Of a DNA stretch of 38,305 nucleotides, positions 1-28,271 are shown one piece after another (positions within the stretch are counted from its first letter, which is position 1; every line of letters starts with the position of its first letter). The notes beneath the pieces are model-generated. The model worked only from the letters and a program-made list of their open reading frames with translations. It was not told where the DNA came from and searched no databases. This DNA is from Candidatus Flemingiibacterium sp. (GTDB lineage Bacteria > Bacillota > Clostridia > Oscillospirales > CAG-272). The stretch covers positions 1 through 38,305 of the forward strand of contig JAZRAB010000183.1 of the NCBI GenBank assembly GCA_045634345.1, written 5' to 3'. The translations under genes and the position numbers were made by a program.

Positions 1-119
1 CTACTGATGATGTTGAGGATCGCAAGTGGAACAACGGTGAGGTTATCAATACTCTTCGCAAGTTCACCGATGAAGAGAAGGCTTACGACGTTCACTACGA
101 TCTTCAGCTTAAGAGATAA
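1..119 (+). CDS. 3' end of an upstream gene (last 38 codons, ...TDDVEDRKWNNGEVINTLRKFTDEEKAYDVHYDLQLKR*); function not assignable
   Basis: An open frame enters from the window edge (phase of position 3) and ends at TAA 117-119, just upstream of the RBS (aaggggg) of the next gene. It is too short for the ORF track. Confidence 0.4.
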   Translation, partial: TDDVEDRKWNNGEVINTLRKFTDEEKAYDVHYDLQLKR

Positions 120-131
120 GGGGGTACACAA

Positions 132-1016
132 ATGAAATCCGGTTATGTACCTGCGCTCGGCACGCCGCTAGATAAGGACGGCAATCTTGTTGCGGAAAGC
201 TTTAAAAAGCATATAGACGATCAGATAAACGCCGGTGCTGTTGGACTTCTCTGCATGGGAAGCATGGGTAAGGAAGCGTTTATCCGTGACGACGTTTACC
301 CCGAGGTCGCAAAAGCTGCGGTAGAGGCAAATAAAGGTCGCGTTCCGCTTTTTGTCGGAGCCATGGATACTTCGATAGCAAGAGTCAAGAGAAAAATCGC
401 TCCTCTTGAGGACCTTGATATAGACGGGTTTGTGTTTACAGCACCGTTTTATAGTGCTCCAAAGAGACACCAAATGATGAATTTCTTCCGCGGAGTAGCA
501 GCTCTTACAAAGCACAAGATACTGCTTTATGACCTGCCTTCTGTAACACAGGTTAAGATTACATACGATATGGTAATTGAACTTCTTGAAACTGTTCCGA
601 ACTTCGGTGGAATCAAGTCTGCTGATACGGTTATGTTCAGAAAGCTCAAGCTGAATCCGAATGTACCGAAGGACTTTGTTACTGTATATTCAGGACTCGA
701 CATGTGCGACGTTGCGTACAAGTGGGGAATTAACAACTGCCTTGACGGTATGTTCTCCTGTACTCCTTATAATAGCGGTAAGATGGTTCGTGCTATGGAA
801 GCCGGCGACTATATAACTGCTGCGGCTTGTCTTGACAATATTACAGGACTTCGTGATTGCTTTATTGCTAACGATTTGCTGCCCTCATTTACTGCAGCCA
901 TGAATATGCTCGGCTGCGAAGGTAACTTTGAACAGGACTATGACAATCCCCCAACAGAGACAGCAATCAAAAATGTACGTGCAGAGATGATTCGTATCGG
1001 CGAGATTAAAGCTTAA
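132..1016 (+). CDS. DapA/NanA-family class I (Schiff-base) aldolase/lyase
   Basis: 294 aa. It shows the family layout: GTPLDKDG..., GLLCMGSMGKEAF (equivalent to the GTTGE region), LYDLPSVTQ, and the GGIKSAD lysine motif. RBS aaggggg lies 8 nt upstream of the ATG. Confidence 0.8.
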   Translation: MKSGYVPALGTPLDKDGNLVAESFKKHIDDQINAGAVGLLCMGSMGKEAFIRDDVYPEVAKAAVEANKGRVPLFVGAMDTSIARVKRKIAPLEDLDIDGFVFTAPFYSAPKRHQMMNFFRGVAALTKHKILLYDLPSVTQVKITYDMVIELLETVPNFGGIKSADTVMFRKLKLNPNVPKDFVTVYSGLDMCDVAYKWGINNCLDGMFSCTPYNSGKMVRAMEAGDYITAAACLDNITGLRDCFIANDLLPSFTAAMNMLGCEGNFEQDYDNPPTETAIKNVRAEMIRIGEIKA

Positions 1017-1112
1017 AAGGATTGTAAGGTTATATTTCTAAAACCGAAAGAAAGAATTGAAAAGAAAAGTCTATATAGTATGTCTCCCCGAGGAGTCATG
1101 CAAATGGAGTGC

Positions 1113-1145
1113 CTCGCGGCAGTATGGGATTTTTACTGCCGCGAG
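1113..1145 (+). other. Perfect 12-bp GC-rich hairpin in the 222-nt gap between the aldolase and the kinase
   Basis: ctcgcggcagta (1113-1124) pairs with tactgccgcgag (1134-1145) around a 9-nt loop. An outer ggag/ctcc pairing extends it. No U-tract follows. Confidence 0.5.
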
Positions 1146-1238
1146 TCGCCTCCCTACTTGTTTATAAATTGAAGCTTGGATCACCGTTTATTTTTAGTGG
1201 TGATACGGAGCATTTACGTGTGAAAAGAGGTAACAACT

Positions 1239-2690
1239 GTGTCGATTTATCTGGCAATCGATTTAGGCACAACGGGCTGCCGCAGTATTTTGTTTGATGA
1301 TAAGCTGTGTCAGCTGGCTGCCTCATATGAGGAGTATGGGCTTATAACGCCCAGAGAAAAATGGACAGAACAGGATGCAGAGCTTTGGTGGGAGCTGACT
1401 CTGCGTACCTCTGAAAAAGCTATTTCCAAAGCGGGGATATCCGCTAAAGAAATAAAGAGTATTTCGATAAGCTCCCAGGGCATCACGGTCGTGCCTGTTG
1501 ATCGTGACCTGAAACCGCTTTGCAATGCGATGAACTGGCTTGACGTCAGAGCCGAGGAAGAAACGGCACAGATCGAAAAGGATTTTGGCGGAGAGAAAAT
1601 ATTTACACATACAGGCAAAAAAAATTCTCCGGGTTATACTCTGCCAAAGCTTCTTTGGTGGAAAAAACATGAGCCGGAAATGTTCAAAAGCGCATGGAAA
1701 TTCCTTATGCCGATGGATTTCCTTGTGGCAAGATTTACCGGCAACTGCATAACCGATCACAGTATGGCGTCGGGAACGCTGATGTATGACCTCAAGAATC
1801 TCGCTTGGAGTCGTGAGATACTCGATTTTTACGGTATTGACGAAGAAAAACTCCCGAGTCTTGCTTTTGCCGGAGAATCGGCAGGGGGCGTTCTTCCGGA
1901 GGTTGCCGAGAGACTTGGGCTCAGCAAGGACTGTGTTGTCGGAGTTGGTGCGCAGGATCAGAAGTGCGCGGCTTACGGTGTCGGACTGAGCGATGGAGTT
2001 ATGACTATTTCTCTCGGTACGGCGGCGGCTATCACGAAGCTGTGGAGAGAGGCAAATACCGAAACAAATACCAGCGTCGGCTGGTGCGGATATGTTGAGC
2101 CGAACTCTTTCGTCACCGAGGGCACGATCGGCACAGCAGGTACTTGCCTGCGTTTTACGCGCGATTTAATGTTTAAAGATGAAGATTACATTACCATAGA
2201 CCGGGAGGCAGAAGAAGCACGTGATCGCGGAAGCTCACTTATCTTTCTTCCGTATATGACAGGAACCTCCGAAACAGAGGATTCTCTTTCGGAGCAGGGC
2301 TGCTTTTACGGTGTAAACCTCGCCACGACAAGAGGCGATTTTGCGCTGGCGGTGATGGAGGGCATTGCTTTTCAGATGCGTGCCATTCTTGAAACGATGG
2401 AGGCTTATGGTAATATACATACATTGATACTTCTCGGTGGAGGAGCAAAGAGTAAGCTTTGGTCGCAGATAATTGCCGATGTCACCGGCATGCAGCTTAA
2501 GGTGCCAACGGTTATTGAGGCAGCAGGCGCCGGAGCCGCGAGACTTGCGGCAAAGGCTGTTGGTGATGATATACCGCCGCTTGAAACGGCAGGTGTTTAT
2601 ACACCGTCTGAACTGACCGAAGCATATGAGAGAAAATACAGAAAATTCAGAAATATCAAAGCGAAGCTTTGGGGGAATGAGGGAAAATGA
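1239..2690 (+). CDS. FGGY-family carbohydrate kinase (xylulokinase/glycerol-kinase-like)
   Basis: 483 aa with a GTG start preceded by aagagg. N-terminal YLAIDLGTTGCR phosphate-1 motif, and a C-terminal GGGAKSKLWSQIIADV motif typical of FGGY kinases. Confidence 0.85.
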   Translation: MSIYLAIDLGTTGCRSILFDDKLCQLAASYEEYGLITPREKWTEQDAELWWELTLRTSEKAISKAGISAKEIKSISISSQGITVVPVDRDLKPLCNAMNWLDVRAEEETAQIEKDFGGEKIFTHTGKKNSPGYTLPKLLWWKKHEPEMFKSAWKFLMPMDFLVARFTGNCITDHSMASGTLMYDLKNLAWSREILDFYGIDEEKLPSLAFAGESAGGVLPEVAERLGLSKDCVVGVGAQDQKCAAYGVGLSDGVMTISLGTAAAITKLWREANTETNTSVGWCGYVEPNSFVTEGTIGTAGTCLRFTRDLMFKDEDYITIDREAEEARDRGSSLIFLPYMTGTSETEDSLSEQGCFYGVNLATTRGDFALAVMEGIAFQMRAILETMEAYGNIHTLILLGGGAKSKLWSQIIADVTGMQLKVPTVIEAAGAGAARLAAKAVGDDIPPLETAGVYTPSELTEAYERKYRKFRNIKAKLWGNEGK

Positions 2691-3841
2691 TGACGGCAAT
2701 AAAAAATGCTCGTGTTGTACTTGAGCATGAAGTCATAGAAAACGGCGTTGTGCTGATAGAGAATGACCGCATCGCGGCAGTTGGTGCTGCCAACGAGGTT
2801 AAGATTCCCGAATCCGCAGACGTTTATGATGCCAATGGACTCTATGTAGGTCCGGGATTCGTTGATATCCACGTGCATGGTGGAAACGGACACCTCTTCT
2901 ATGAGAATCCGATTGCCGCGGCAGAGCACTTTTTGGCTCACGGAGAGACTACTGTTCTGGCAACGCTGTATTATGATCTCACCAAGGAGGAGTTCATTGA
3001 TTCCATTGAGCGCGTTAAAGCGGCGATGGGGCAGGGGATGGCAGGCAATGCTATAGGCGGCTTCTATATGGAAGGACCGTATATGAACCCCAAGTACGGT
3101 GCTCAAATTGAAAAAAACAAGTGGAGAGGCGAGATCAAGGCAGAGGATTACACCGATGTCGTTGAGGCGGCGGGCGAGCACGCCAAGGTCTGGGCAATAG
3201 CTCCTGAACGCGAGGGACTTGAACCGTTCCTCACAAAAGCAAAGCTTGTAAATCCGGGCGCAGTATTCGCGGTCGGACACAGTGAGGCAACGCCGGCACA
3301 GGTACAGGCTCTCAAAAAGTACGGGATCGGTCTGCAGACACACTGTATGAACGCAACCGGTCGCCGAACACCGACGAGCGGCGGCACACGAAGCTGTGGC
3401 CCTGATGAGGCATGTCTTATGGATAACGATATCTACTGTGAGATGATCTGCGATTCGCAGGGCATCCACGTTGCGGCAGATATGCAGCAGTTTATAATTT
3501 CAGTCAAGGGAATTGACAAGGTCGTGCTTATCTCCGACAGCTATGTCAGCGATGAGCCGACACCGCCGCAGTTTGCGCATATCACCGATCTGCAATTTGA
3601 CGCAACCGGCGGACTTTGCGGAAGCAAGCTTACGCTTGACAAGGCGTGCGCTAATGTTATGAAGCATATCGGATGCAGTATATGTGATGCGTTTCTTATG
3701 GCATCCCGCAATCCTGCGAGAGCTGTCGGAATGGGCAGCGAGCTTGGAAGCATCACAGTTGGCAAGAGAGCGGATATAGTTATTGTCGATGACGGATTTA
3801 ATGTTGAAAATGTTATGCTGAAAGGCAAACTTTTAAAATAA
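2687..3841 (+). CDS. NagA-like amidohydrolase (N-acetyl-amino-sugar-6-phosphate deacetylase family)
   Basis: 384 aa. GFVDIHVHGGNGH metal-binding motif near residue 60, and overall length and layout as in NagA. The ATGA overlap with the kinase stop indicates translational coupling. Confidence 0.75.
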   Translation: MMTAIKNARVVLEHEVIENGVVLIENDRIAAVGAANEVKIPESADVYDANGLYVGPGFVDIHVHGGNGHLFYENPIAAAEHFLAHGETTVLATLYYDLTKEEFIDSIERVKAAMGQGMAGNAIGGFYMEGPYMNPKYGAQIEKNKWRGEIKAEDYTDVVEAAGEHAKVWAIAPEREGLEPFLTKAKLVNPGAVFAVGHSEATPAQVQALKKYGIGLQTHCMNATGRRTPTSGGTRSCGPDEACLMDNDIYCEMICDSQGIHVAADMQQFIISVKGIDKVVLISDSYVSDEPTPPQFAHITDLQFDATGGLCGSKLTLDKACANVMKHIGCSICDAFLMASRNPARAVGMGSELGSITVGKRADIVIVDDGFNVENVMLKGKLLK

Positions 3842-3865
3842 TTCTAAAAAAGGAAGGTAATTATT

Positions 3866-5200
3866 ATGTTAAAAGCTGGAATGACAAGAGTTGATATCAC
3901 ACCTGAGCAGGGCATAGAGCTTGAAGGTTATCCTCACTATCCAAGATACAATACCGGTGCACACGATCCGCTGTATGCGGCTTGTATGTATCTTAATAAC
4001 GGCAAAGAAGAGATCGCAATGGTTACTCTTGACCTCTTGTTCTTCTCGAAGATATATGTTGCGGAAGTGCGCCGTAAAGTAGAAGAAAAGTGTGGTCTCA
4101 AGGGTGCTAACATCATGTTCAGTTGCTCACATACACACTCCGGTCCTGCGGCATCCGGCTTCATCGATGTTGAGGATCTTGAAAAGGGAAGAGAGCAGCC
4201 GATGGATTACATCAACAGTCTTATTGCAAAGCTTGTTGATATTATCGTTGAAGCAAAAACAAATGCATTTGACGGATATTTTGCTTACGGTACTGCTATC
4301 TGCGGTGCTGAATCGGGCGTTGGCGGAAATCGCCGTATGCCGGGCGGACCGCATGATCCGCTGGTAAGCGTTATGGCGGTAAAGGACACAAATGATGTCG
4401 TTCGCGGCGCACTTGTAAACTACACTCTCCATCCGACGTTTATTCACGAATGGAGCACTGTCTGTACAGCTGACTATCCTGCTTACCTCAAAATGCAGAT
4501 TGAAGAAGTATATCCGAATGCTCTTACCGGCTTCTCGCAGGGATGCTCTGGCAATCAGTCGAGCCGTTACTATCGTCAGGGCGAAAGCTATGATGAGGCA
4601 GAGCGCGTAGGACGCGCTATCGGTAAAGCGGCTAATACCGTTATCGCAAAGGCAAATTGGATGAACGACTTCGAGATTAAGACTGCGTCCAAGGAGATTG
4701 AGATCGATACTCGCAACTTCGGCACAGAGGAAGAGCTTGTTGCGCAGGTTGAAAGAGATACCGCAATTTATAAGGAGCTTTACGCAAAGTACGGTCAGTC
4801 CACTAACCGCGACGAATACTATCTCTGGCAGAATGCTAACCTCAAGTGCCTCGGCTCGGAAAATCAGCTCGGTTATGTACGTATTCAGAACAAGGGCATT
4901 AAGATCGAGATGCTCGAGGATGAAAATCCTGCTGAAATTCAGGTGTTCAACATTGGCGGAGTCGCTGTTGTCGGATTCCCGGGTGAGGCGTTCGTTGAGT
5001 ACGGCCTCTACATAAAGGCAATGGCAGGCTTCGGTATGGTCGTTGTAAACGAGCTTACCAACGGTGACCTTCCGGGCTATATGTACACACCAGAGTCTAT
5101 TGTTACCGGCGGTTACGAGACAGATACTTCCATGCTTGCCCCCGGATTCGGACGCAAGGTTGTTGATACTGTTCTTGAGGTCGCTGAGCTTGTAAAATAA
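3866..5200 (+). CDS. Hydrolase resembling the neutral/alkaline (non-lysosomal) ceramidase N-terminal domain family, paralogue 1
   Basis: 444 aa. Motifs seen: ITP..G..L.GYP, GAHDPLYA, CSHTHSGP and GGNRR.PGGPHDP. It is collinear with the next gene. The family call is from memory of PF04734-like proteins and is unverified. Confidence 0.55.
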   Translation: MLKAGMTRVDITPEQGIELEGYPHYPRYNTGAHDPLYAACMYLNNGKEEIAMVTLDLLFFSKIYVAEVRRKVEEKCGLKGANIMFSCSHTHSGPAASGFIDVEDLEKGREQPMDYINSLIAKLVDIIVEAKTNAFDGYFAYGTAICGAESGVGGNRRMPGGPHDPLVSVMAVKDTNDVVRGALVNYTLHPTFIHEWSTVCTADYPAYLKMQIEEVYPNALTGFSQGCSGNQSSRYYRQGESYDEAERVGRAIGKAANTVIAKANWMNDFEIKTASKEIEIDTRNFGTEEELVAQVERDTAIYKELYAKYGQSTNRDEYYLWQNANLKCLGSENQLGYVRIQNKGIKIEMLEDENPAEIQVFNIGGVAVVGFPGEAFVEYGLYIKAMAGFGMVVVNELTNGDLPGYMYTPESIVTGGYETDTSMLAPGFGRKVVDTVLEVAELVK

Positions 5201-5225
5201 ATTTAGTTAAAGAAAGGAAAACATT

Positions 5226-6560
5226 ATGCTTAAGACCGGATTTGCAAGAACAGATATAACACCTCCCCGGGGACTTTCGCTGATGGGATATCCGCACTAT
5301 GACAGATTTAATACCGGTGCACACGATCCGCTTTATGCGGCTTGTATGTATCTCGACAACGGTGAAAACGCCGTTGCTATGGTAACGCTTGACCTCCTTT
5401 ATTTCTCAAAGCCGTATGTAATGAAGGTTCGCAAGCTCGCCGAGGAAAAATGCGGTATCAACGGTGAAAATATTATGATCACCTGCACGCATACACATTC
5501 CGGTCCACGTGCATATAAAATGGTCGCTGACGATGATCCTGCAACTGCTGACCCGAAGCGTGATGCATATGTTGAGGATATTATCGTTAAGATAGCTGAC
5601 CTTGTTGCAGAGGCGAAGAATACCGCATTTGACGGAGAATTTGCGTACAATGTGGCACTTTGCGGCGCAGAGCAGGGTGTTGGCGGCAACCGCCGTGTAC
5701 CCGGTGGACCACACGATCCGCTTGTTTCCGTAATGGCTGTAAAGGACATGAAGGGCGATCTTCGCGGCGTGCTCGTGAACTATTCGCTTCATCCGACATT
5801 TATTCATGAGTGGGTAAACGAATGTACCGCGGACTATCCTGCGTATGTTAAGATGCAGGTTGAGGAAACTTATCCCACTGCACTTTCCGGATTCGGTCAG
5901 GGTGCATCGGGCAATCAGTCGAGTCGTTATTACCGTAAGGGTGAGAGCTTCGACGAGGCAGAGCGCGTAGGACGCGCTATCGGTAAGGCTGCCTGTGAAG
6001 CTATCGCAAAGATGAAGTGGCTCTCTGACATCGAAATCAAGACAGTATCCACCACAATGGAGATGGAGCTTCGTGATTTTGGTCCGATTGAGGAACTCGA
6101 AAAGCAGGTTGAGCATGATACTGCCGTGTACAAGGAGCTTTATGCAAAGTACGGCAAGTCGGAAAAGCGCGAGGAATACCTGCTTTGGCAAAATGCAAAC
6201 CTTAAGTGCCTCGGCTCGGAGAACAAACTTGCGTATGCACTGAAGATAAAGAACGGCGAAAAGCTTGACCGTCTTCAGGACGAAAGCCCGGTTGAGCTTC
6301 AAGCGTTCAATCTCGGCGGACTCTGCGTGATCGGCGTTCCCGGCGAGATGTTCGTGGAATATGCGCTTTATGTTAAAGCAATGGCAGGCTTTGGTATGGT
6401 TATTTTCAATGAAACAACTAACGGCTGCTTGCCCGGATATGTACATACTCCGGAGGCGCTTACTTTTGGTGGATATGAGACAGATACCTCTGTAATTGGG
6501 GAGAAATTCGGTCAGCATATAGTTAAAAAAATACTCGATACAGTCGAAAAAATAAAATAA
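5226..6560 (+). CDS. Ceramidase-like hydrolase, paralogue 2 (tandem duplicate of 3866-5200)
   Basis: 444 aa, gap-free alignment by eye with the preceding protein at roughly two-thirds identity. Same motifs (CTHTHSGP, GGNRRVPGGPHDP). Confidence 0.55.
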   Translation: MLKTGFARTDITPPRGLSLMGYPHYDRFNTGAHDPLYAACMYLDNGENAVAMVTLDLLYFSKPYVMKVRKLAEEKCGINGENIMITCTHTHSGPRAYKMVADDDPATADPKRDAYVEDIIVKIADLVAEAKNTAFDGEFAYNVALCGAEQGVGGNRRVPGGPHDPLVSVMAVKDMKGDLRGVLVNYSLHPTFIHEWVNECTADYPAYVKMQVEETYPTALSGFGQGASGNQSSRYYRKGESFDEAERVGRAIGKAACEAIAKMKWLSDIEIKTVSTTMEMELRDFGPIEELEKQVEHDTAVYKELYAKYGKSEKREEYLLWQNANLKCLGSENKLAYALKIKNGEKLDRLQDESPVELQAFNLGGLCVIGVPGEMFVEYALYVKAMAGFGMVIFNETTNGCLPGYVHTPEALTFGGYETDTSVIGEKFGQHIVKKILDTVEKIK

Positions 6561-6578
6561 TTTAGGAGGATCATCACA

Positions 6579-7541
6579 ATGATTAACGGACCAGACAACT
6601 TCACATTTAAACCAGCAGATTTTTATCCTTTCAGGGATACTGAGGATATTGCTCGTGTTCGTGCAATTACCAAGGAAGACATTATCGCAATGAACGGCAA
6701 GCATCCCACTTCTCCTACAATGCAGATTCATCTGCCCCGTCCCGAGGAAATGGCGATCATAATGGTTGCCGATATTGTACAGCGTATCGTCGATTCGGAC
6801 AGATATGACAAGAAGTGTGTCATGATTATGCCGAACCCCAATACCGGTTATATTCAGGCGGCACACATTCTCAAAAAGCTGAAGGTGAATTGCCGCAATG
6901 TCAAGTTCTATATGATGGACGAGTGGGCAGACGAGGACGGCAATATAGCACCTCTCTCCTATAAGCAGGGCTTCGGTAATGCTTTCTACCGTTTCATGGT
7001 ATCGGAGATTCTCGAGCTCGGTTTCAAGGAAGAAAACTTTATCTATCACAGCAATAAGATTACCCCCGACTATTCGAAGATGCTCGAAGCTGACGGTGAG
7101 GCTGATATTGTTTACTCCGGTCCCGGATGGCCCGGTCATCTCGCATTTATTGATCCTGTTGAGGATTGGTATAAGCCTACCATGGAAGAGTATCTCGCGC
7201 AGGGCGCAAAGGTTGCAAGTCTCCATCCGCTTACTATCGCACAGAACTCCCTCCACGGCTCATTTGGTTGCTCCGGCGATATCGCAAAGGTTCCGCCGAA
7301 GGGGGCAATGATGGGTCCGAGAGACGCTATGAAGGCAAAAGAGGTTTACGACTTCCACGGAATCACTACCGCAGGTACCCATGTTACTTGGCAGAGACTG
7401 ACTTCTCGCCTCTGCATTTTCGGCAAGCCGAGCCAGGAAGTTCCCGCATCCATACTCCAACTCCGCGATAAGCCTACTCATGTATTCATGAGCGAGCAGA
7501 ATGCGGCTACAATTGAACCTGATTACTTCTTCCAGTATTGA
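6579..7541 (+). CDS. NagB/6-phosphogluconolactonase-superfamily sugar-phosphate isomerase/deaminase-like protein
   Basis: 320 aa. Segments align by eye to E. coli NagB: MMDEW (NMDEY), SGPGWPGHLAFIDP (GGVGNDGHIAFNEP) and PPKGAMMG (PKYALTVG). It carries a long N-terminal extension. Confidence 0.6.
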   Translation: MINGPDNFTFKPADFYPFRDTEDIARVRAITKEDIIAMNGKHPTSPTMQIHLPRPEEMAIIMVADIVQRIVDSDRYDKKCVMIMPNPNTGYIQAAHILKKLKVNCRNVKFYMMDEWADEDGNIAPLSYKQGFGNAFYRFMVSEILELGFKEENFIYHSNKITPDYSKMLEADGEADIVYSGPGWPGHLAFIDPVEDWYKPTMEEYLAQGAKVASLHPLTIAQNSLHGSFGCSGDIAKVPPKGAMMGPRDAMKAKEVYDFHGITTAGTHVTWQRLTSRLCIFGKPSQEVPASILQLRDKPTHVFMSEQNAATIEPDYFFQY

Positions 7542-7564
7542 TTTTGTGGAGAAAGGTTGCATAT

Positions 7565-8497
7565 ATGATTTCATGTACGGAATTTATACCTGCTTATAGC
7601 GAGCTTTTTACTTACCTTGAGGACAATTACGGCAGAGCCGAGGTTGATCGCTTCTGGAAGTATCTTTTTGAGCCGACGGGCAACGGGATTCCACTTATCA
7701 ATTTCGTGAAAAAGGAAGGTATCCGAGGCTGCTTCTCATATTGGTCAGGAACCCTCACCGAGGAAGCCTCGGACTGCACTATTTATCTTAACGAAAAAGC
7801 CGGCTGGTTCATGAATGTTATGTATAAATGTCCCTCGAAGGGAAGACTCCTTAAATTGAAAGATGAGATCGGAATTGAACCGTATCACGACTACTGTCTG
7901 CACTGTGACTGCTATCGCGCGGCAATAGAACAGGTAGGACTTAAGTACATGTACAATTTCCAAGGCGTCGATCATGCTGCTTGCTCACTCATTATATACG
8001 ATCCAAAGGTTTTCGACGGACGCATAATAATCGATGAGAATACGGAAAAGCTCGAGGTGCGTGCTTCGGAGAACGAGTACTTCCACCGCGATTTCCACAG
8101 CAGCATGAATATGGGTATTCATTACCTCGGTGAAAATTACGGTCTTACGGTGGTTGAGGATTATCTTGCACGCTATACCAAAAACGTGTACAGAAAAGAG
8201 ATTGCGGATATCGAAAAGGGCGGCATTGATGCTATTGCGGATAAGATATGCGATACCTACGAAAAAGAAAAATCTCCCGACGCAGTAGAGCTTGTGCGTG
8301 ACGGTGCAAGGCTTACCGTCAATGTGAAGTATTGCCCGGCAGTAAAGCATCTGAAAGCAACCGGACGAGTTGTTTCGCCGTGGTATCGTTATACTACAGA
8401 AGTTGTGATGGAAACTCTCGCAAAAGCGGCGGGGGCAAGCTTTAAAATGCTGTCTTACGACGAAGAGAACGGTGCGGCTTGCTACACTTTTGAGTGA
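7565..8497 (+). CDS. Uncharacterised Cys-motif protein, paralogue 1 (two-module; possible ATC-hydrolase/V4R-like fold)
   Basis: 310 aa counted from ATG 7565. An aaagg RBS-like element precedes it and the start context is identical to that of its paralogue, so the track's upstream start at 7538 is rejected. Conserved KCPSKG...YC.HCD...AAC signature in the N-terminal half, and YCP...AACYTFE in the C-terminal half. Confidence 0.6.
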   Translation: MISCTEFIPAYSELFTYLEDNYGRAEVDRFWKYLFEPTGNGIPLINFVKKEGIRGCFSYWSGTLTEEASDCTIYLNEKAGWFMNVMYKCPSKGRLLKLKDEIGIEPYHDYCLHCDCYRAAIEQVGLKYMYNFQGVDHAACSLIIYDPKVFDGRIIIDENTEKLEVRASENEYFHRDFHSSMNMGIHYLGENYGLTVVEDYLARYTKNVYRKEIADIEKGGIDAIADKICDTYEKEKSPDAVELVRDGARLTVNVKYCPAVKHLKATGRVVSPWYRYTTEVVMETLAKAAGASFKMLSYDEENGAACYTFE

Positions 8498-8553
8498 GCG
8501 ATTTTGTAATGTTATTATTTGTAAAAGTGATTTGTTGAAAAGAGGTTGTATAT

Positions 8554-9486
8554 ATGATTTCATGTACGGAATATATTCCTGCATACAGTGAGTTTTTTAC
8601 CTATCTTGATGAAACCTACGGTAAAGAGGAGTTAGACCGTTTCTGGGAGTATCACTTTGCACCTACGGGTAAGGGTATACGTCTCATCAATTTCCTTAAG
8701 GCAGAGGGGCTAAAGGGCTGTTATACTTACTGGTCTGCCGCACTCAAAGAGGAGGCTGCGGACGTTACCATCTATTTGAACGAAAAAGCAGGATGGTTTA
8801 TGACTGATATGCACAAATGCCCTTCAAAAGGTAAATTGCTTAAGTTGAAGGATGAGTTTGGTTTTGTGCCTTATCACAGTTACTGTATGCACTGCGACGG
8901 CTATCGCGCCGCTGTGGAGCAGGTCGGACTTAAATATATGTACGATTTTGTCGGCTGTGACCGCGCAGCATGCCGTCTTATCATTTACGACCCTAAGGTG
9001 TTCAATGAACGGGTAATCGTTGACGAAAACACAAAGATACTCGACATCCGAGCCTCCGAGAACGAATACTATCATCTTGATTTTCACCGCAGCATGAACA
9101 GCGTAATCAATTATGTCGGCGAAAATCACGGTATTTCGGCGGTCGAGGATTATCTCGGACGTTACACAAGAAATGTTTGTTTGAAACAGATGACCGATAT
9201 CGAAACTCGCGGTATCGATGCGATTGCCGACAAGATACGTGATACATATGAGAAGGAAAAATCTCCCGACGCAGTAGAGCTTGTGCGCGATGGCGGAAAG
9301 CTTACCGTCAATGTGAAGTATTGCCCGGGTGTTAAGTATCTTAAGGATACGGGACGTATTGTTTCACCGTGGTATCGCTATACTACAGAAGTTGTGATGA
9401 AGGCTCTTTCTGAAAAAGCCGGTGTAAGCTTTAAAATGCTGTCTTACGACGAGGAAACAGGTGCGGCTTGCTACACTTTCGAATAA
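8554..9486 (+). CDS. Uncharacterised Cys-motif protein, paralogue 2 (tandem duplicate of 7565-8497)
   Basis: 310 aa, collinear with the previous protein at roughly 70 percent identity by eye. It shares the MISCTE start and the Cys pattern. Confidence 0.6.
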   Translation: MISCTEYIPAYSEFFTYLDETYGKEELDRFWEYHFAPTGKGIRLINFLKAEGLKGCYTYWSAALKEEAADVTIYLNEKAGWFMTDMHKCPSKGKLLKLKDEFGFVPYHSYCMHCDGYRAAVEQVGLKYMYDFVGCDRAACRLIIYDPKVFNERVIVDENTKILDIRASENEYYHLDFHRSMNSVINYVGENHGISAVEDYLGRYTRNVCLKQMTDIETRGIDAIADKIRDTYEKEKSPDAVELVRDGGKLTVNVKYCPGVKYLKDTGRIVSPWYRYTTEVVMKALSEKAGVSFKMLSYDEETGAACYTFE

Positions 9487-9501
9487 TTTGAGTACATAAT
9501 A

Positions 9502-9540
9502 AAAAACGCTTCGGATTTAAGTGCTGAAGCGTTTTTGTTT
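9502..9540 (+). terminator. Rho-independent terminator closing the 1239-9486 operon
   Basis: aacgcttc ... gaagcgtt stem followed by tttttgttt. Confidence 0.7.
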
Positions 9541-9588
9541 GTACGAATCTGAAAAATCGCAAAATAAAAAATTTTTATCAAAAACCCC

Positions 9589-9617
9589 TTTACAAATGGG
9601 AGAAAGTGTAGTATAAT
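9589..9617 (+). promoter_or_regulatory. Sigma-70-type promoter for the ABC transporter operon
   Basis: TTTACA (9589-9594), 17-nt spacer, TATAAT (9612-9617). Confidence 0.6.
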
Positions 9618-9677
9618 ACATTTGTCAAGATAACACTTTACCAAATTACAAAAGTAAAAAAGAAGGAGACTAACATC

Positions 9678-10508
9678 ATGAAACGCATTTTAACACTTGT
9701 ACTTGCATTTGCACTTATTCTCACATTGGCTGCCGGATTTACTTCGTGCGGCGAAGAAACAAGCGATTGGGCAACTATCGAGGAGCGCGGATATTTTGTC
9801 TGCGGTATCACCGTTTATGCGCCTATGAACTATTTTGATGATGACGGAAATCTCGTTGGTTTTGATACCGAATTTGCGCAGGCACTCGCAGCAGAGCTTG
9901 GACTTGATGCAAAATTCCAGGTTATCAGCTGGCCTAACAAGTATCTGGAGCTTAACTCCGGTGCTATTGACCTCATCTGGAACGGCTTCACATACGGTAT
10001 GGAGAGCGATGGCGTTTCACGTACCGAGTATGTTGACTTTACATATTCCTACCTCGAAAACCGTCAGTGCCTTATCACCAAGGCTGACCGCGTTGACGAG
10101 CTTAATTCGGCTGAATCCCTTGCAGGCCTGAAGGCTGTTGCAGAGGGCGGTTCTTCCGGCGAGGGTGTTGCAATCGAGCTTTGCGGTGATGAAAATAATG
10201 TTACCACATTCACTTCTCAGGCAGCCGCTCTTATGGAGCTTTCCGCAGGTAATGCAGACTTTGCTGTTATTGACTACCAGATGGCAAAAGCAATGGTTGG
10301 CGTTGGTGACTACACCGATCTTGCTATTAACGAGGCAGTACAGCCCGAGTCCGAGGTTTATGCTATCGGCGCACGCAAGGGCAGTGACTTTACCGCAAAG
10401 GTGAACGAAGCAATCAAGGCTCTTTCCGAAAACGGAAAGCTCGCTGAGCTTGCTGAGAAGTACGGCCTTACCAACGATCTTATCGCTGATATCGGAAGCG
10501 AGTCTTAA
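9678..10508 (+). CDS. Polar amino-acid ABC transporter substrate-binding lipoprotein
   Basis: 276 aa. Signal peptide with lipobox (AAGFTSCG) and family 3 SBP features (DLIWNGFTY, AVIDYQMAK). RBS aaggag. Confidence 0.8.
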   Translation: MKRILTLVLAFALILTLAAGFTSCGEETSDWATIEERGYFVCGITVYAPMNYFDDDGNLVGFDTEFAQALAAELGLDAKFQVISWPNKYLELNSGAIDLIWNGFTYGMESDGVSRTEYVDFTYSYLENRQCLITKADRVDELNSAESLAGLKAVAEGGSSGEGVAIELCGDENNVTTFTSQAAALMELSAGNADFAVIDYQMAKAMVGVGDYTDLAINEAVQPESEVYAIGARKGSDFTAKVNEAIKALSENGKLAELAEKYGLTNDLIADIGSES

Positions 10509-11167
10509 TGGATCTTTTAACTGTTACCAAAACGCTGTTCGAGGGGTTTGGCGTTACTTGCCTGCTGTTTATTTTAACACTCGTTTTCTCGCTCCCCCTC
10601 GGACTTGTGATCTCGTTTGGCTCAATGGCTAAATTTAAGCCGCTTGCATGGCTGACACGCACATTTGTGTGGATTATACGCGGAACACCGCTTATGCTGC
10701 AGCTATGCGCCATATTCTATGTTCCCGGAATAGTTTTCAACGTACAGCTTTTCGGCGGTGATAACGGACGCTTCACGGCAGCACTTGTGGCGTTTGTAAT
10801 AAACTACGCCTGCTATTTTTCCGAGATATACCGCGGCGGTATTGAGGGTATTCCGAGAGGGCAGTACGAGGCGGCACAGGTGCTTGGTATGACTGCAAAG
10901 GAGACTTTTTTCACGGTTATTCTCATGCAGGTCGTCAAGCGTATTCTTGCGCCGATAAGCAATGAGGTCATTACACTCGTCAAGGATACCTCTCTCGCGC
11001 GTGTTATTGCGGTGGCAGAGATATTCTACATAAACGATATGTCATTTCTGCAACGCGGACTCGTATGGCCGATGTTCTACATCGCAGTATTCTTCCTCAT
11101 CTTCGTCGGAGTGCTTACGATCTTCTTCGGATGGTGCGAGAAGAAGCTGGACTATTATAAGGTGTGA
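10508..11167 (+). CDS. Amino-acid ABC transporter permease (His/Glu/Gln/Arg/opine family)
   Basis: 219 aa, multi-TM, with the EAA-like loop (YEAAQVLGMT). Its start overlaps the SBP stop. Confidence 0.8.
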   Translation: MDLLTVTKTLFEGFGVTCLLFILTLVFSLPLGLVISFGSMAKFKPLAWLTRTFVWIIRGTPLMLQLCAIFYVPGIVFNVQLFGGDNGRFTAALVAFVINYACYFSEIYRGGIEGIPRGQYEAAQVLGMTAKETFFTVILMQVVKRILAPISNEVITLVKDTSLARVIAVAEIFYINDMSFLQRGLVWPMFYIAVFFLIFVGVLTIFFGWCEKKLDYYKV

Positions 11168-11176
11168 GGTGGCGAC

Positions 11177-11983
11177 ATGGCTTTTCTTGAAGTACGAAAC
11201 TTAAAAAAGCATTTCGGAAACACTTCCGTCCTTCACGGTATCGACTTTTCAATGGAAAAAGGCGAGGTCGTGGCAATAATCGGCTCATCGGGCGGTGGAA
11301 AAACTACATTCCTTCGCTGTCTCAATTTTCTTGAAATGGCAAACGAAGGCACAATCGATATTGATGGCGGCTTTCATTTCGATGCCAATGCCGCATACAG
11401 TAATGCCGAGATTCGTGCAATGCGCTTGAAGATGGGATTGGTATTTCAGTCGTTCAATCTTTTTCCGCAGTATACGGCGCTTGAGAATGTTTATCTGCCG
11501 CTTCAACTGCGTACCAAAGAGAAGATACGCGGTGAACTTCCATTCGGACGAGCAAGACGCAATGCGTATATCGAAGCTCAGAAGGAAAATCAAGATATTG
11601 CCAAGAGTATTCTCACAGAGGTGGGGCTTGGCGATAAAATGGGCAACTATCCTTGTCAGCTTTCTGGTGGACAACAGCAGAGAGTTGCTATTGCACGCGC
11701 GCTTGCACAAGAGCCGGCGATACTTTGCTTCGACGAGCCGACCAGTGCGCTTGACCCCGAGCTTACGGACGAGGTTTTGCGTGTCATCAAAGAGCTTAAG
11801 GACCGCGGACGCACCATGCTCGTGGTTACTCATGAGATGGAGTTTGCGCGAAATGTTGCCGATAGAGTAGTCTTTTTTGCAGACGGACTTATCGAGGAAG
11901 AGGGCGCACCCGCCGATATCTTCACAAATCCGAAATCCGAAAAGACTGCGGCATTCCTGCATCACGGCGCAGGGAATATATAA
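11177..11983 (+). CDS. Amino-acid ABC transporter ATP-binding protein
   Basis: 268 aa. Walker [10 protein letters not shown], signature [15 protein letters not shown], Walker [13 protein letters not shown] and H-loop VVTHEM. It has an extra segment of about 18 aa between the Q-loop region and the signature motif, relative to E. coli GlnQ as I recall it. Confidence 0.85.
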
Positions 11984-12014
11984 TTGCATATTACCTTCTA
12001 ACAGGATTCCAACG

Positions 12015-12049
12015 AAAAAACGCACTCATTTTTTATGAGCGCGTTTTTT
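12015..12049 (+). terminator. Rho-independent terminator of the ABC operon
   Basis: aaaaaacgcactcat / atgagcgcgtttttt hairpin with flanking A and T runs. Confidence 0.7.
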
Positions 12050-12055
12050 CGTGTA

Positions 12056-12369
12056 TAAATTATTGTTTATCGGGGAGTTTTATGCTTCGATTATTGCAGC
12101 TCCCAAGCGACGCTATGCGCCGCCTACCGTATTGCTCGCGGCGGCAATGCCACCGCTCGGGAGGGGGAGCCACTGCTCTCAAACGCCGATGCGTGCTCCC
12201 CCTCCACCCCCTCAAGCCTCGGCTTAGCCGAGTCAAGGAAGGGAGTGCAGAGGGGAACCTATGGATCGGCGTTTGAGAGCAATTGGTTCCCCTCTGCATA
12301 TCGGCAGGCGGTGCAGCGCACCGCAAGGAGCATCGTTGTTCGGAGCGCCCCCTATAAACTCAAATTTAC
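12056..12369. repeat. GC-rich nested-palindromic mosaic repeat, copy 1 (arm A - core - arm B')
   Basis: The left arm (12056-12130) matches the reverse complement of the right arm of copy 2 and of copy 3. The right arm (12299-12369) matches the reverse complement of the left arm of copy 2. The core (12131-12298) is nearly identical to the copy 2 core in direct orientation. Confidence 0.85.
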
Positions 12370-12418
12370 AATTAACTTCACAAGCTTCCGATATTTCGCT
12401 GAAAATATCGAAAACATA

Positions 12419-12447
12419 TTGCCTCATGAATAAAAAGATGCTATAAT
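12419..12447 (+). promoter_or_regulatory. Promoter for the MFS/GDPD genes
   Basis: TTGCCT (12419-12424), 17-nt spacer, TGcTATAAT (extended -10; TATAAT at 12442-12447). Confidence 0.55.
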
Positions 12448-12486
12448 ATTGTAAACTATGTAAAACACAAAGGATGGTATCTTGCA

Positions 12487-13869
12487 ATGAAACTGAATTA
12501 TAAACGCACTGTTCTTGTCGGCTTTGCATTTTTCCTTATCTGCACTTTCTGGCAGGCGTATGACACCGTGATCCCGAAAATTCTTACCGATAAATTTGGT
12601 ATGTCGCAGAGTCTTTCGGGTGCGGTTATGGCACTTGATAATGTTCTCGCAGTTATACTTCTGCCTATCTTTGGCGCAATATCCGACAGACACAATGGAA
12701 AGCGCGGAAGACGCACGCCATTTGTCCTTGTCGGTACCGTTCTTGCCGCTATAGCATTTGTCGGACTCTCATTTGTGGATAACGTGCAGCTTGCCGCTAT
12801 TGAGAAGGGGGTTGCCGAAATCGGTCTTGAGGCGACTGAAGCGCGTCTTGCGTATGCTTGGGAGATGACATGCAGTAATCCCGTGATCCTTATATTTTTT
12901 ATGTTGATGCTTCTAGTTGTGCTTCTCTCAATGGCGATATTCCGTTCTCCGGCGGTTGCGCTTATGCCTGACGTTACACCTAAACCGCTTCGCTCAAAGG
13001 GCAATGCTGTAATCAACCTGATGGGCGCTGTGGGCGGAATCCTTGTGCTTGCCCTCGGTATCATCTTTGGCACGGGCAAGCCGGAAAATACATTTATGAG
13101 CTATACGCCATTCTTCGCGGTTATTGCGGCGGTGATGCTTGGTGCGCTTGCTATATTCTCGCTTACGGTCAAAGAAAAGAAATGGGCGGCGGAGGCTGAT
13201 GCTGTAAATGATAAGATGGATGACTCCGAAGACATACGCAGTGTAACCCAAGAAAAACGCTCGCTTACTAAGGGGGAGCTTAAATCCCTGCTTTTCATTT
13301 TGGCATCTGTGGTGCTTTGGTATATGGGCTATAACGCGGTTTCAAGTAAATACTCGGTCTATGCGGGAGAGGTGTTAAAGCTTGATTATAATCTCACTCT
13401 TATGGTGGCTCAGGCAGCGGCAATCGTATCGTATATTCCCGTTGGTATCATTTCGCAGAAATTTGGGCGTCGTAAAACTATTTTGGCTGGTGTTGCCATG
13501 CTTGGCATTGCTTTCGGTTGTGCGTACTTCATGGGCGAGGGAAGCAATATCTGGGTGATGAACGCACTGTTTGCTCTTGCAGGAATCGGTTGGGCGACGA
13601 TCAATGTGAATAGTTATCCCATGGCCGTTGAACTTGCAAGCTCGGGCGATACCGGCAAATATACGGGATACTACTACACTGCATCTATGGCGGCACAAAC
13701 CGTTACGCCGATACTTTCGGGATTCTTCATGGACATAAATCTTAAAACTCTTTTCCCGTATGCAACTATATTTGTAGCACTTGCGTTTGTGACTATGCTT
13801 TTTGTTCGCCATGGCGATATTAAAACAGATTCCAAAAAGGATCTGCTCGAGCATTTTGATGTGGAGTAA
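12487..13869 (+). CDS. MFS transporter (GPH/SLC45-like)
   Basis: 460 aa with about 12 predicted TM segments. SDRHNGKRGRRTPF loop motif after TM2 and a long charged central loop. Confidence 0.75.
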   Translation: MKLNYKRTVLVGFAFFLICTFWQAYDTVIPKILTDKFGMSQSLSGAVMALDNVLAVILLPIFGAISDRHNGKRGRRTPFVLVGTVLAAIAFVGLSFVDNVQLAAIEKGVAEIGLEATEARLAYAWEMTCSNPVILIFFMLMLLVVLLSMAIFRSPAVALMPDVTPKPLRSKGNAVINLMGAVGGILVLALGIIFGTGKPENTFMSYTPFFAVIAAVMLGALAIFSLTVKEKKWAAEADAVNDKMDDSEDIRSVTQEKRSLTKGELKSLLFILASVVLWYMGYNAVSSKYSVYAGEVLKLDYNLTLMVAQAAAIVSYIPVGIISQKFGRRKTILAGVAMLGIAFGCAYFMGEGSNIWVMNALFALAGIGWATINVNSYPMAVELASSGDTGKYTGYYYTASMAAQTVTPILSGFFMDINLKTLFPYATIFVALAFVTMLFVRHGDIKTDSKKDLLEHFDVE

Positions 13870-13873
13870 TAAA

Positions 13874-14677
13874 ATGGCGATTATAATAATATCTATTGTA
13901 CTGCTTGCAGGACTCTATATGTTTGTGTTGATACGTCCGAGATTACATGCTCGCCATGATAAACAGCTCGACACCGACTATGCGCATCGGGGACTCCACC
14001 GCAGAGGAGTGCCGGAAAATTCACTTGCGGCATTTGAGCGTGCTGTGGTACACGGCTATGGAATTGAGCTTGATGTTCAGCTTTCACGCGACGGAGAGGT
14101 CATGGTATTTCATGATTATACTCTTGAGAGAATGACCGGCAGGGAAGGACGGCTCTGCGATTTTTGCGCGGATGAGCTTTCATCAATGCGCCTTGCCGAT
14201 ACAGATGAAACCATACCGCAGCTTCGTGATGTGCTAGGACTTGTAAATGGGCGTGTTCCACTTCTTATTGAATTGAAAGGCGAAAGCGCCGATGTTTCGC
14301 TTTGTGAGCCGCTTTCTCGTCTGCTTGGGGAATATGATGGAGCTTTTTGCATAGAATCCTTCAATCCGATACTGCTTGGAGAGATGGCGAAGTGTATGCC
14401 GCAGGTCTATCGCGGCATACTGTATACCAACCTTTGCCGCGATAAAAAGAAATATTCGCTTCTCAATATCGCGCTTACCGGTATGGTTACCAATATTATT
14501 GCACGCCCTGATTTTATTGCATATAATGAAAAATACCGGGGCTCTATGTTGTTATGGCTTATTACGCATTTGTACCGTCCAAACAAATATTGCTGGACAG
14601 TAAAAAGCAAAGCGGATTACGATATTGCAAAGAGAAATGAGGAATTTGTTATTTTTGAGAATTTCAAACCCGAATAG
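13874..14677 (+). CDS. Membrane-anchored glycerophosphodiester phosphodiesterase family protein
   Basis: Start moved to ATG 13874 (ggag RBS 7 nt upstream), which avoids overlap with the MFS gene. N-terminal TM helix, then the GDPD motifs AHRGL..PENSL.AF and GIELDVQLSRDGEVMVFHD. Confidence 0.75.
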   Translation: MAIIIISIVLLAGLYMFVLIRPRLHARHDKQLDTDYAHRGLHRRGVPENSLAAFERAVVHGYGIELDVQLSRDGEVMVFHDYTLERMTGREGRLCDFCADELSSMRLADTDETIPQLRDVLGLVNGRVPLLIELKGESADVSLCEPLSRLLGEYDGAFCIESFNPILLGEMAKCMPQVYRGILYTNLCRDKKKYSLLNIALTGMVTNIIARPDFIAYNEKYRGSMLLWLITHLYRPNKYCWTVKSKADYDIAKRNEEFVIFENFKPE

Positions 14678-28197: not shown

Positions 28198-28271
28198 AAG
28201 CGTTCTCCTTTTAGCGTAGAAAATCTTCTGCATATTTGACGTAATAAATTAAAAAAAGTTCCCTGACATGC

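Follow-up and report, generated by a model that had tools for sequence, protein, structure and literature searches.

What is degraded by a gene array whose families recall sialic acid and N-acetylglucosamine (GlcNAc) catabolism, yet whose members depart from those pathways in several respects? The question is raised by contig JAZRAB010000183.1 of Candidatus Flemingiibacterium sp. (Bacillota; Clostridia), of which the whole stretch analysed, 38,305 nucleotides (nt) in length, is here called the window. Within it, positions 132-9486 encode an aldolase of the DHDPS family, an FGGY sugar kinase, a NagA-like metal amidohydrolase, two ceramidase-fold zinc amidases (hereafter ceramidase-like), a NagB-fold protein (NagB-like) and two copies of a 310-residue, cysteine-rich protein, which we call U310. 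The locus is real and strongly conserved, and the variant of amino-sugar catabolism that it represents is apparently uncharacterised. On the strength of the co-conserved core (also seen in a ceramidase-like::FGGY fusion protein), the retained active-site motifs and the glycan- and sugar-related contexts of relatives, we give a probability of about one half to a general model in which the cassette degrades an N-acylated amino sugar, most likely delivered along with an acidic sugar; the best reading of its source is an acidic glycan of the host or of bacteria. Our confidence in any specific substrate is much lower.

Four core genes are inherited as one unit across Clostridia

Loci (designated by L numbers) were gathered from genome contigs, metagenome contigs and contigs encoding homologues, and then by a tblastn census. 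The FGGY kinase, NagA-like, ceramidase-like and NagB-like genes make up a core of four in 85 non-redundant loci, and the recurrence of the arrangement in that many loci shows that it is not due to chance. The NagB-like gene lies directly downstream of the ceramidase-like gene in 69 of the 74 loci with room for it (93%), the NagA-like gene immediately upstream in 52/68, and an FGGY kinase gene no more than 3 kb upstream in 54/68. The core is thus inherited as one unit across Clostridia and contains two tight pairs: kinase and NagA-like genes, which overlap in the window, and amidase and NagB-like genes, which are adjacent in 93% of loci. Presence was counted in the 31 loci having at least 8 kb on both sides, where the NagB-like gene occurs in 30, FGGY in 29, NagA-like in 29, U310 in 23, a DeoR regulator in 18, a SIS isomerase in 14, DHDPS, YjbQ and an Opp-type ATPase in 13 each, a short-chain dehydrogenase/reductase (SDR) and a triose-phosphate isomerase (TIM) in 12 each, an aldo-keto reductase (AKR) in nine and DUF386 in eight. 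Hosts include metagenome-assembled genomes (MAGs) of Lachnospiraceae, Oscillospiraceae, Acutalibacteraceae, Christensenellaceae and Erysipelotrichaceae, together with the isolate Anaerosacchariphilus hominis NSJ-68; the closest genome in the census is a Candidatus Flemingiibacterium MAG at 90% identity. Two divergent loci, L007 (ceramidase-like protein 24% identical, E = 4e-23) and L125, keep the ceramidase-like, NagA-like, NagB-like, U310 and DHDPS genes. An earlier note on this DNA had raised the question of whether its unassigned genes travel with the NagA, NagB and aldolase genes and with an upstream transporter elsewhere in Clostridia. They do travel with the NagA-like and NagB-like genes well beyond this genome, and an Opp-type ATP-binding cassette (ABC) transporter does accompany the locus in close relatives, but the aldolase is found in only 13 of the 31 loci.

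In the three closest relatives (L001, L009 and L011), the genes run in the order Opp-type ABC transporter, divergent DeoR and SIS, TIM and YjbQ, followed by the genes of the window; an SDR gene comes after the cassette in L001 and L009, the L011 contig ending earlier. The upstream TIM of these relatives is of archaeal type, the SIS isomerase is KpsF/GutQ-like and not MurQ-like, and the DeoR protein scores best as AgaR (198 bits against a cut-off of 260). Because the truncated first gene of the window is the end of a YjbQ-like gene, the operon begins outside the window, and by comparison with these relatives it is predicted to extend upstream through TIM, YjbQ, the divergent SIS and DeoR genes and the Opp-type transporter.

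A trio of DHDPS, DUF386 (YhcH/NanQ-like) and U310 genes stands directly ahead of the core in L005, L096 and L109. L105 has this trio but no core, and the genes next to it there encode a GH78 rhamnosidase, an FG-GAP protein, a CE4 deacetylase, a PfkB kinase and a mannitol-dehydrogenase-family reductase, which is an acid-sugar context. Given its presence in 13/31 loci with full flanks, the aldolase is accessory; it belongs to a separable module of DHDPS, DUF386 and U310, from which DUF386 has been lost in the lineage of the window. Other contexts of the core comprise GH20, GH88, NanE, Gfo/Idh/MocA and AP_endonuc_2 genes (L003), a BNR_2 sialidase-like gene with an HpcH aldolase and a second DHDPS nearer NanA, at 217-222 vs 281 bits (L089, L015 and L017), and an RbsB-type ABC transporter with a divergently transcribed U310 gene (L057 and L092). 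The transporters that accompany the core are interchangeable between genomes, being Opp-type, RbsB-type, GntP, sugar ABC or major facilitator superfamily proteins.

Beside the intact core of L092, L093 and L094, BNR_2 and DUF386 are broken into open reading frames (ORFs) of 74-191 residues (approximately 10980-11910 and 13670-14030), which suggests decay of the accessory module. A CBM9_2 protein is encoded between the NagA-like and NagB-like genes of L007 (13435-14064), and the window encodes a CBM9-like protein of 381 residues (14974-16119) a few kb downstream of the cassette. In L057, the locus of A. hominis NSJ-68 (1165-2490, - strand), and in three similar loci, a 441-residue protein adjoins the divergent U310 gene and is distantly like sulfoquinovose isomerase SftI and L-arabinose isomerase (106 bits against a cut-off of 700).

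Enzyme families and putative active sites

The features of the array are as follows (coordinates in the window, strand, description and basis).

3-119, +, YjbQ/UPF0047-like gene, 3' end only; 92% identity to the C-terminal part of a 206-residue YjbQ-like protein of L001
132-1016, +, DHDPS-family aldolase, 294 residues; PF00701
1017-1238, +, structured intergenic region, 222 nt; fold z-score and alignment with relatives
1239-2690, +, FGGY sugar kinase, xylulokinase-like, 483 residues, GTG start; FGGY_N and FGGY_C
2687-3841, +, NagA-like metal amidohydrolase, 384 residues; TIGR00221 and PDB NagA matches
3866-5200, +, ceramidase-fold Zn amidase, copy a, 444 residues; PF04734
5226-6560, +, ceramidase-fold Zn amidase, copy b, 444 residues; 64% identical to copy a
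6579-7541, +, NagB-fold protein, 320 residues; fold comparison and weak TIGR00502 match
7565-8497, +, U310 copy a, 310 residues, cysteine-rich; AlphaFold2 model and Foldseek
8554-9486, +, U310 copy b, 310 residues; 74% identical to copy a
9502-9545, +, intrinsic terminator; 13-bp stem and U run
9589-9617, +, sigma-70-like promoter site of the next unit; TTTACA-17-TATAAT, 11/12 matches

The DHDPS, FGGY, NagA-like and ceramidase-like assignments that had been made from the sequence alone were all confirmed with profile hidden Markov models (HMMs). The aldolase matches PF00701 at 111 bits; it is not DapA by score (TIGR00674, 104 bits against a cut-off of 206), and among NanA models it reaches 73.3 bits for NF003164 (cut-off 281) and 53.5 bits for TIGR00683 (cut-off 382). 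The Schiff-base lysine (GGIKSAD) and both tyrosines (one in LYDLP) are kept, GSMGK stands where GSTGE or GTTGE is expected, and the position aligned to DapA Arg138 (Arg in 7loy), the residue that binds aspartate semialdehyde, is Val. The lysine, the tyrosines and the carboxylate-binding GSTGE motif are the residues that we take to define NanA. By these sequence features, the protein is a class I (Schiff-base) aldolase of the DHDPS family that is not DapA and, by score, not NanA.

The kinase matches FGGY_N at 220 bits and FGGY_C at 79 bits. It comes near the XylB model TIGR01312, staying under the cut-off (347.6 against 380.25 bits), and has E. coli XylB as its best PDB match (E = 7e-60); the gntK_FGGY model TIGR01314 gives 209.5 bits against a cut-off of 648.55. 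For the NagA-like protein, the score against TIGR00221 is 192.8 bits, under the cut-off of 225.65, and the best PDB matches are all NagA (E = 5e-30). In an alignment to M. smegmatis NagA (6fv3) it keeps the HxH, EGP, GH, TH..NA, D..H and D motifs, whose metal-binding and catalytic roles we presume to be those of NagA, together with a conserved Arg that we take to be the inter-subunit phosphate clamp. If it is one, this residue argues for a phosphorylated or anionic substrate, and we read the protein as a probable deacetylase of the N-acetyl-aminosugar-phosphate type. Neither NanE (PF04131) nor an ROK kinase was found in a Pfam scan of the window ORFs, and the earlier claim that the locus departs from the canonical route in both respects thus stands.

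Both ceramidase-like copies match just the first ~100 residues of the PF04734 model (copy a at 38.8 bits, residues 4-97 only) and end at 444 residues, so that they consist of the catalytic domain only, without the C-terminal ceramidase domain; the neutral ceramidase model NF041649 gives 20 bits against a cut-off of 1200. Four motifs, HTHSGP, LHPT, PGE and GY.YT, are invariant across the family and align with P. aeruginosa neutral ceramidase (PaCD, 2zws), at what are presumably the His/His/Glu/Tyr Zn ligands of that enzyme. As no hydrophobic signal sequence was seen by eye at the N-terminus, the protein is apparently cytoplasmic. Removal of a non-acetyl acyl group, the role suggested for it in the earlier note, would be plausible. 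It has 939 close homologues, and the short ceramidase-like family comprises 11,357 clusters at 50% identity. Two distant proteins carry the domain in fusions, with an FGGY kinase in one polypeptide of 885 residues from the representative library (P0406) and with an SCP2 lipid-transfer domain in a relative of 952 residues (P0429). The 445-residue ORF at 17802-19139 was considered as a third copy and rejected, being unrelated in comparison.

The NagB-like protein matched no Pfam family, Glucosamine_iso included, in the Pfam scan, and its score against the nagB model TIGR00502 is far below threshold (28.9 bits, E = 7e-7, cut-off 236.9). Its assignment consequently rests on fold comparison and not on HMMs, and the earlier NagB call survives in that form. 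The AlphaFold2 model is of moderate quality (mean predicted local distance difference test score, pLDDT, 74), and its top 23 Foldseek matches are all NagB-family chains (E = 1e-8, template-modelling score 0.5-0.6), namely glucosamine-6-phosphate deaminases and the NagB-like KP1_5497 (6nbg), with 6-phosphogluconolactonases next. The MDEW, PGH and VPxK motifs align with those of NagB, where they presumably correspond to Asp72, His143 and Lys208, the numbering of the catalytic Asp and His being that which we assume for NagB. With 2546 homologues at 76-96% identity, it is better conserved than any other protein of the cassette. Residues aligned with catalytic or metal-binding motifs are therefore retained in all three putative enzymes of hydrolase or deaminase type. 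A relationship between this 320-residue protein and the 310-residue U310, which would have made three paralogues, was rejected on comparison.

U310 had been described as of unassigned function, and it indeed has no Pfam match, while its PDB sequence search returned just noise, mainly tyrosine phosphatases at E > 0.1. Its AlphaFold2 model (pLDDT 89) nevertheless consists of two tandem alpha/beta domains, for which Foldseek gave partial, weak matches to the phenol-sensor (V4R) domains of MopR/PoxR and to Bet3 (E = 0.04-0.1) and none at E <= 0.001. PF14196 (ATC_hydrolase) is matched weakly by 10/34 family members (best E = 0.005), and C4, C56, C89, C111, H113, C114, C140 and C257 are invariant. 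HNOB, V4R and ATC-hydrolase are similar domains, and a conserved cluster of three cysteines is common to V4R and ATC-hydrolase domains (PMC5847659). We thus model U310 as a tandem V4R/Bet3/ATC-hydrolase-like fold, a lead rather than a result. The protein has 1301 homologues and goes mainly with DHDPS and DUF386. It recurs as two or three tandem copies in L115 (three, 6696-7631 and neighbours), L007 (two, 9046-10936), L134, L140, L142 and L146; in distant lineages such copies are just 31-51% identical to the window protein. Tandem copies hint at heteromeric use or repeated subfunctionalisation.

Array, boundaries and tandem duplicates

Positions 1-9486 hold nine genes on the + strand, counting the first, which is cut at the window edge. 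The gene calls agree with those of the earlier note, each start being preceded by a GGAGG-like ribosome-binding site, and the gaps are, in order, 12, 222, -4, 24, 25, 18, 23 and 56 nt, the negative value being the overlap of the FGGY kinase and NagA-like genes by 4 nt. Spacing is hence tight from 1239 onward, as had been stated, but the gap between 1016 and 1239 is 222 nt, structured, and not tiny. The truncated gene stops 12 nt before the ATG of the aldolase, and its 206-residue homologue in L001 matches PF01894/TIGR00149. At the other end, the terminator expected after 9486 is present (13-bp stem and U run, -21.3 kcal/mol, z = -4.43), and the promoter-like site at 9589-9617 is the boundary of the locus; the unit that follows is an amino-acid ABC transporter (9678-11983; SBP_bac_3, permease and ATPase). 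Opposite ceramidase-like copy b and the NagB-like gene runs an antisense ORF of 616 residues (5406-7256, - strand), which is most likely non-coding; similarly long antisense ORFs in relatives mislead longest-ORF gene calling.

The intergenic region 1017-1238 folds with a minimum free energy of -66.6 kcal/mol (z = -3.78 vs shuffles) and aligns with its counterparts in L001, L009 and L011, an alignment in which the arms of a 12-bp hairpin at 1113-1145 show compensatory changes. A AACCGGAAGAAAGAATT-like motif recurs within the region. An Rfam scan of 1-12500 returned nothing credible, this region included, and in more distant relatives its position is occupied by the DUF386 gene. The region may be an internal regulatory point or a processing element.

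Together, the two paralogue pairs make up 49% of 132-9486, close to the half of coding capacity claimed for them, and their copies align without gaps at 64% (ceramidase-like, over 444 residues) and 74% (U310, over 310 residues) identity. The view that the locus is built around these pairs does not hold, however, since most relatives are single-copy, the ceramidase-like duplicate is limited to a small clade and that of U310 to the immediate lineage of the window. Orthologues of ceramidase-like copy b are found just in L001 and L011 (91-92%) and in L014 (76%), and the clade joining copies a and b contains 8/92 sequences. U310 copy b lacks orthologues; the single gene carried by L001 and by L009 is orthologous to copy a, and the clade joining the two copies contains 4/35 sequences. 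On this phylogeny, copy b is a recent, faster-evolving duplicate specific to that immediate lineage. Elsewhere, ceramidase-like genes were duplicated independently in L018 and in L041/L073 and exist in three copies in L014, NagB-like genes are duplicated in L001, L009, L014, L018, L052 and L061, and the NagA-like gene is duplicated in L014. As duplications are scattered over lineages, tandem expansion is a recurrent habit of the cassette and not its architecture. The duplicates in the window are recent lineage-specific expansions that probably broaden acyl or substrate range.

Elsewhere in the window, a full-length serpin (PF00079, 287 bits) is encoded at 26968-28233 (- strand), adjoined by a 480-residue ORF without a Pfam family (25505-26947). 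Two further ORFs, at 17802-19139 (445 residues) and 35283-36074 (263 residues), match no Pfam family, and 19243-20436 (- strand) encodes a 397-residue protein of the F420-0:gamma-glutamyl ligase (CofE) family.

Candidate pathways and known systems

In the general model, the FGGY kinase would phosphorylate the sugar, or its keto or acid form, and the NagA-like enzyme would take the N-acetyl group off the phosphorylated intermediate. The ceramidase-fold amidase would then remove a second or different amide-linked group, be it a non-acetyl N-acyl, a second N-acetyl or an amide-linked substituent, leaving a 2-amino sugar phosphate from which the NagB-fold enzyme would make a keto-sugar phosphate and ammonia. 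The module of DHDPS, DUF386 and U310 would probably cleave a 2-keto-3-deoxy acid sugar, either sialic-acid-like or uronate-derived, to give pyruvate and an aldehyde, and TIM, the KpsF-like SIS and YjbQ, whose genes would directly precede the window, could pass the products to central metabolism. Further accessories, varying by genome, would be the SDR and AKR reductases, the AgaR-like DeoR repressor and the transporters. A more ambitious version, which we put forward tentatively and regard as doubtful, is that the core is a new route for amino sugars bearing two N-acyl groups or a non-acetyl N-acyl group, in which a cytoplasmic sugar N-deacylase of ceramidase fold is coupled to a new NagB-fold deaminase. 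Candidate substrates would be derivatives of pseudaminic and legionaminic acids and other diacylated sugars of microbial or host glycans, and U310 would take part in acid-sugar breakdown, either as a new enzyme or by handling a ligand.

Several points weigh against the general model. The NagA, NagB, XylB, NanA and DapA scores are all below the curated equivalog cut-offs, and enzyme specificities therefore cannot be read from HMMs; the NagB-fold protein could, on its modelled structure, be a lactonase instead. The substrates of FGGY kinases characterised so far are ketoses, polyols or aldonates, and such kinases are not known to act on N-acetylhexosamines; because ketoses and polyols are usually preferred, an alternative order is possible in which deacylation and deamination to a ketose would precede FGGY phosphorylation. 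Moreover, the divergent loci L007 and L125 are without an FGGY kinase, and the phosphorylation step may thus be dispensable. The roles given to U310, YjbQ and DUF386 are guesses, and the census, anchored on ceramidase-like homologues of at least 59% identity and drawn mostly from ruminant and human gut MAGs, is a biased sample. The amino-sugar inference of the earlier note was, in sum, reasonable but unproven.

Among specific alternatives, the closest to the earlier analogy with sialic acid and GlcNAc catabolism is a route without NanE, in which a lyase would yield N-acetylmannosamine (ManNAc), the FGGY kinase ManNAc-6-P, the NagA-like enzyme its deacetylated form and the NagB-like enzyme Fru-6-P from ManN-6-P, with the ceramidase-like enzyme handling N-glycolyl or other acyl variants. 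Neither NanE nor a ROK kinase (NanK) was found in the Pfam scan of the window, NagA-like and NagB-like enzymes are present but diverged, and some relatives carry DUF386/NanQ-like, BNR_2 and NanA-like second DHDPS genes, or SBP_bac_5 ABC transporters. The families on which the analogy was based are thus all there, but the aldolase behind it is accessory (13/31 loci) and far from NanA (73 vs 281 bits), NanE adjoins the core in one relative, we know of no FGGY kinase for ManNAc, and the universal ceramidase-like partner is left unexplained; we consider this route unlikely. Two of these objections, an accessory aldolase and a ceramidase-like enzyme without a task, also face an Entner-Doudoroff-like route for N-acetylglucosaminate or other N-acetyl-amino sugar acids, in which an aldonate-type FGGY kinase, the NagA-like enzyme, a deaminase and the DHDPS aldolase would deliver pyruvate and glyceraldehyde-3-P, the latter to TIM. 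The FGGY family does include gluconokinases (TIGR01314), DHDPS and TIM are present together, a GntP permease occurs in one relative and SDR, AKR and an Amidohydro_2 lactonase-like gene in many, and the ong pathway for an amino-sugar acid sets a precedent (PMC9537276). Yet the kinase scores best as XylB, not GntK, and the precedent is built from entirely different families, which makes this route distinctly improbable. That the locus is an ordinary nan/nag (sialic acid/GlcNAc) or aga (N-acetylgalactosamine, GalNAc) operon merely looking odd is very improbable: the aldolase, kinase, NagA-like and NagB-like families and, in relatives, an AgaR-like regulator would suit it, but each equivalog cut-off is missed, NanE, an ROK kinase, AgaS and tagatose-bisphosphate aldolase were not found, the ceramidase-like, 320-residue NagB-fold and (in most loci) U310 families have no role there, and we found no paper describing such a gene set.

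The ceramidase-like enzyme is the starting point of the remaining alternatives. Two unrelated amidases that always occur together would be expected if the substrates were di-N-acylated bacterial sugars (pseudaminic and legionaminic acids or diacetamido-trideoxyhexoses), with the two enzymes stripping the two N-acyl groups and the 6-deoxy skeleton ending as triose phosphate and a C3 aldehyde. The repeated duplication of ceramidase-like genes fits variable acyl groups, aldolase, DUF386 and BNR_2 genes occur in relatives, and TIM with AKR/SDR in the clusters fits a 6-deoxyhexose end-game; against this, the proposal is purely inferential, neither a class II aldolase nor a published account of such a pathway was found, and the core is often without any aldolase, so that we judge it quite unlikely. 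Breakdown of ceramides or other N-acyl-amides by true lipid amidases, the FGGY kinase acting on a released glycerol-like or sphingoid-like moiety, could draw on the PF04734 match, on the conservation of positions aligned to the Zn motifs of neutral ceramidases and on the SCP2 fusion of P0429. Its probability is slight, given the missing C-terminal ceramidase domain and N-terminal signal (by eye), the score for the NCBIfam neutral ceramidase (20 against a cut-off of 1200), and the invariant NagA-like and NagB-like partners in contexts of glycoside hydrolases and sugar transporters. Equally slight is the probability of peptidoglycan or spore-cortex recycling, in which the Zn amidase would open muramic delta-lactam or cleave the bond between N-acetylmuramic acid (MurNAc) and L-Ala of MurNAc-peptides: DHDPS, DUF386, BNR_2, GH88 and GH78 contexts do not fit and the SIS protein is KpsF/GutQ-like, not MurQ-like, even if the hosts are all Clostridia, Opp-type transporters occur in close relatives, SIS, NagA-like and NagB-like genes are present, and in one relative the neighbouring genes include those for an alanine racemase and a D-aminoacylase-like protein.

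Many gut Clostridia of humans and ruminants, abundant and for the most part uncultured, carry the cassette; 939-2546 close homologues were found for each core protein, in some cases encoded on up to 54 contigs, and three of the protein families are without functional annotation. Identification of the substrate would supply a missing nutrient-use pathway for gut metabolic models and a first function for U310 and for the short ceramidase-like family (~11,000 clusters at 50% identity). The route for two N-acyl groups or a non-acetyl N-acyl group, if true, would amount to three new enzyme functions and a nutrient niche common to many uncultured gut Clostridia. A. hominis NSJ-68, which carries the core, offers a cultured entry point.

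Searches of the open-access literature aimed at the gene set or its member families gave no description of a matching gene set or pathway, which is not proof of novelty; the earlier note had held that a characterised pathway with this gene set, or a lack of conservation outside this genome, would speak against it, and no such pathway was found while the genes are co-conserved in other genomes. The nearest known system is nan/nag (NanA-NanK-NanE-NagA-NagB; E. coli and many Firmicutes), which likewise combines a DHDPS-family aldolase, a sugar kinase, a NagA-family deacetylase and a NagB-fold enzyme in one operon; in relatives of the window, DUF386 (NanQ-like), BNR_2 and SBP_bac_5 transporters add to the likeness. 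The window differs in its FGGY (XylB-like) kinase in place of ROK, in having no NanE, and in an aldolase, NagA-like and NagB-like proteins that score under the equivalog cut-offs. The cassette differs further in its extra ceramidase-fold amidase and, in most loci, the 310-residue V4R-like protein, and in an aldolase that is dispensable in over half of full-flank loci. With the aga system (GalNAc/galactosamine, AgaR) the cassette shares an AgaR-like DeoR regulator, deacetylation by a NagA-family enzyme, a step of deaminase/isomerase type and, through TIM, an end point at triose phosphate, but it has no AgaS, tagatose-6-P kinase, tagatose-bisphosphate aldolase or phosphotransferase system, and its SIS protein is KpsF/GutQ-like.

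The recently discovered ong pathway of Pseudoalteromonas for oxidised chitin (GlcNAc1A) proceeds through a deacetylase, a deaminase, a kinase and a 2-keto-3-deoxy acid aldolase, and includes the D-aminoacylase OngB, the pyridoxal-phosphate-dependent OngC, the RidA protein OngD and a PfkB-family KdgK, in marine Gammaproteobacteria (PMC9537276). It shows that non-canonical amino-sugar routes exist; identity of the cassette with it was rejected, as the protein families differ. Neutral/alkaline ceramidases (PaCD 2zws, human ASAH2) resemble the window amidases in their N-terminal catalytic fold and aligned Zn-site motifs, whereas the latter are catalytic domain only, apparently cytoplasmic and partnered with sugar enzymes. 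Finally, the V4R/HNOB/ATC-hydrolase superfamily (MopR/PoxR, AtcB) is linked to U310 by structural neighbours, the weak PF14196 match and the invariant Cys cluster, all matches being sub-significant (Foldseek E at least 0.01; Pfam E at least 0.005), and U310 differs from what is described for that superfamily in its tandem architecture, in having no output domain of DNA-binding or kinase type, and in its operon position among enzymes.

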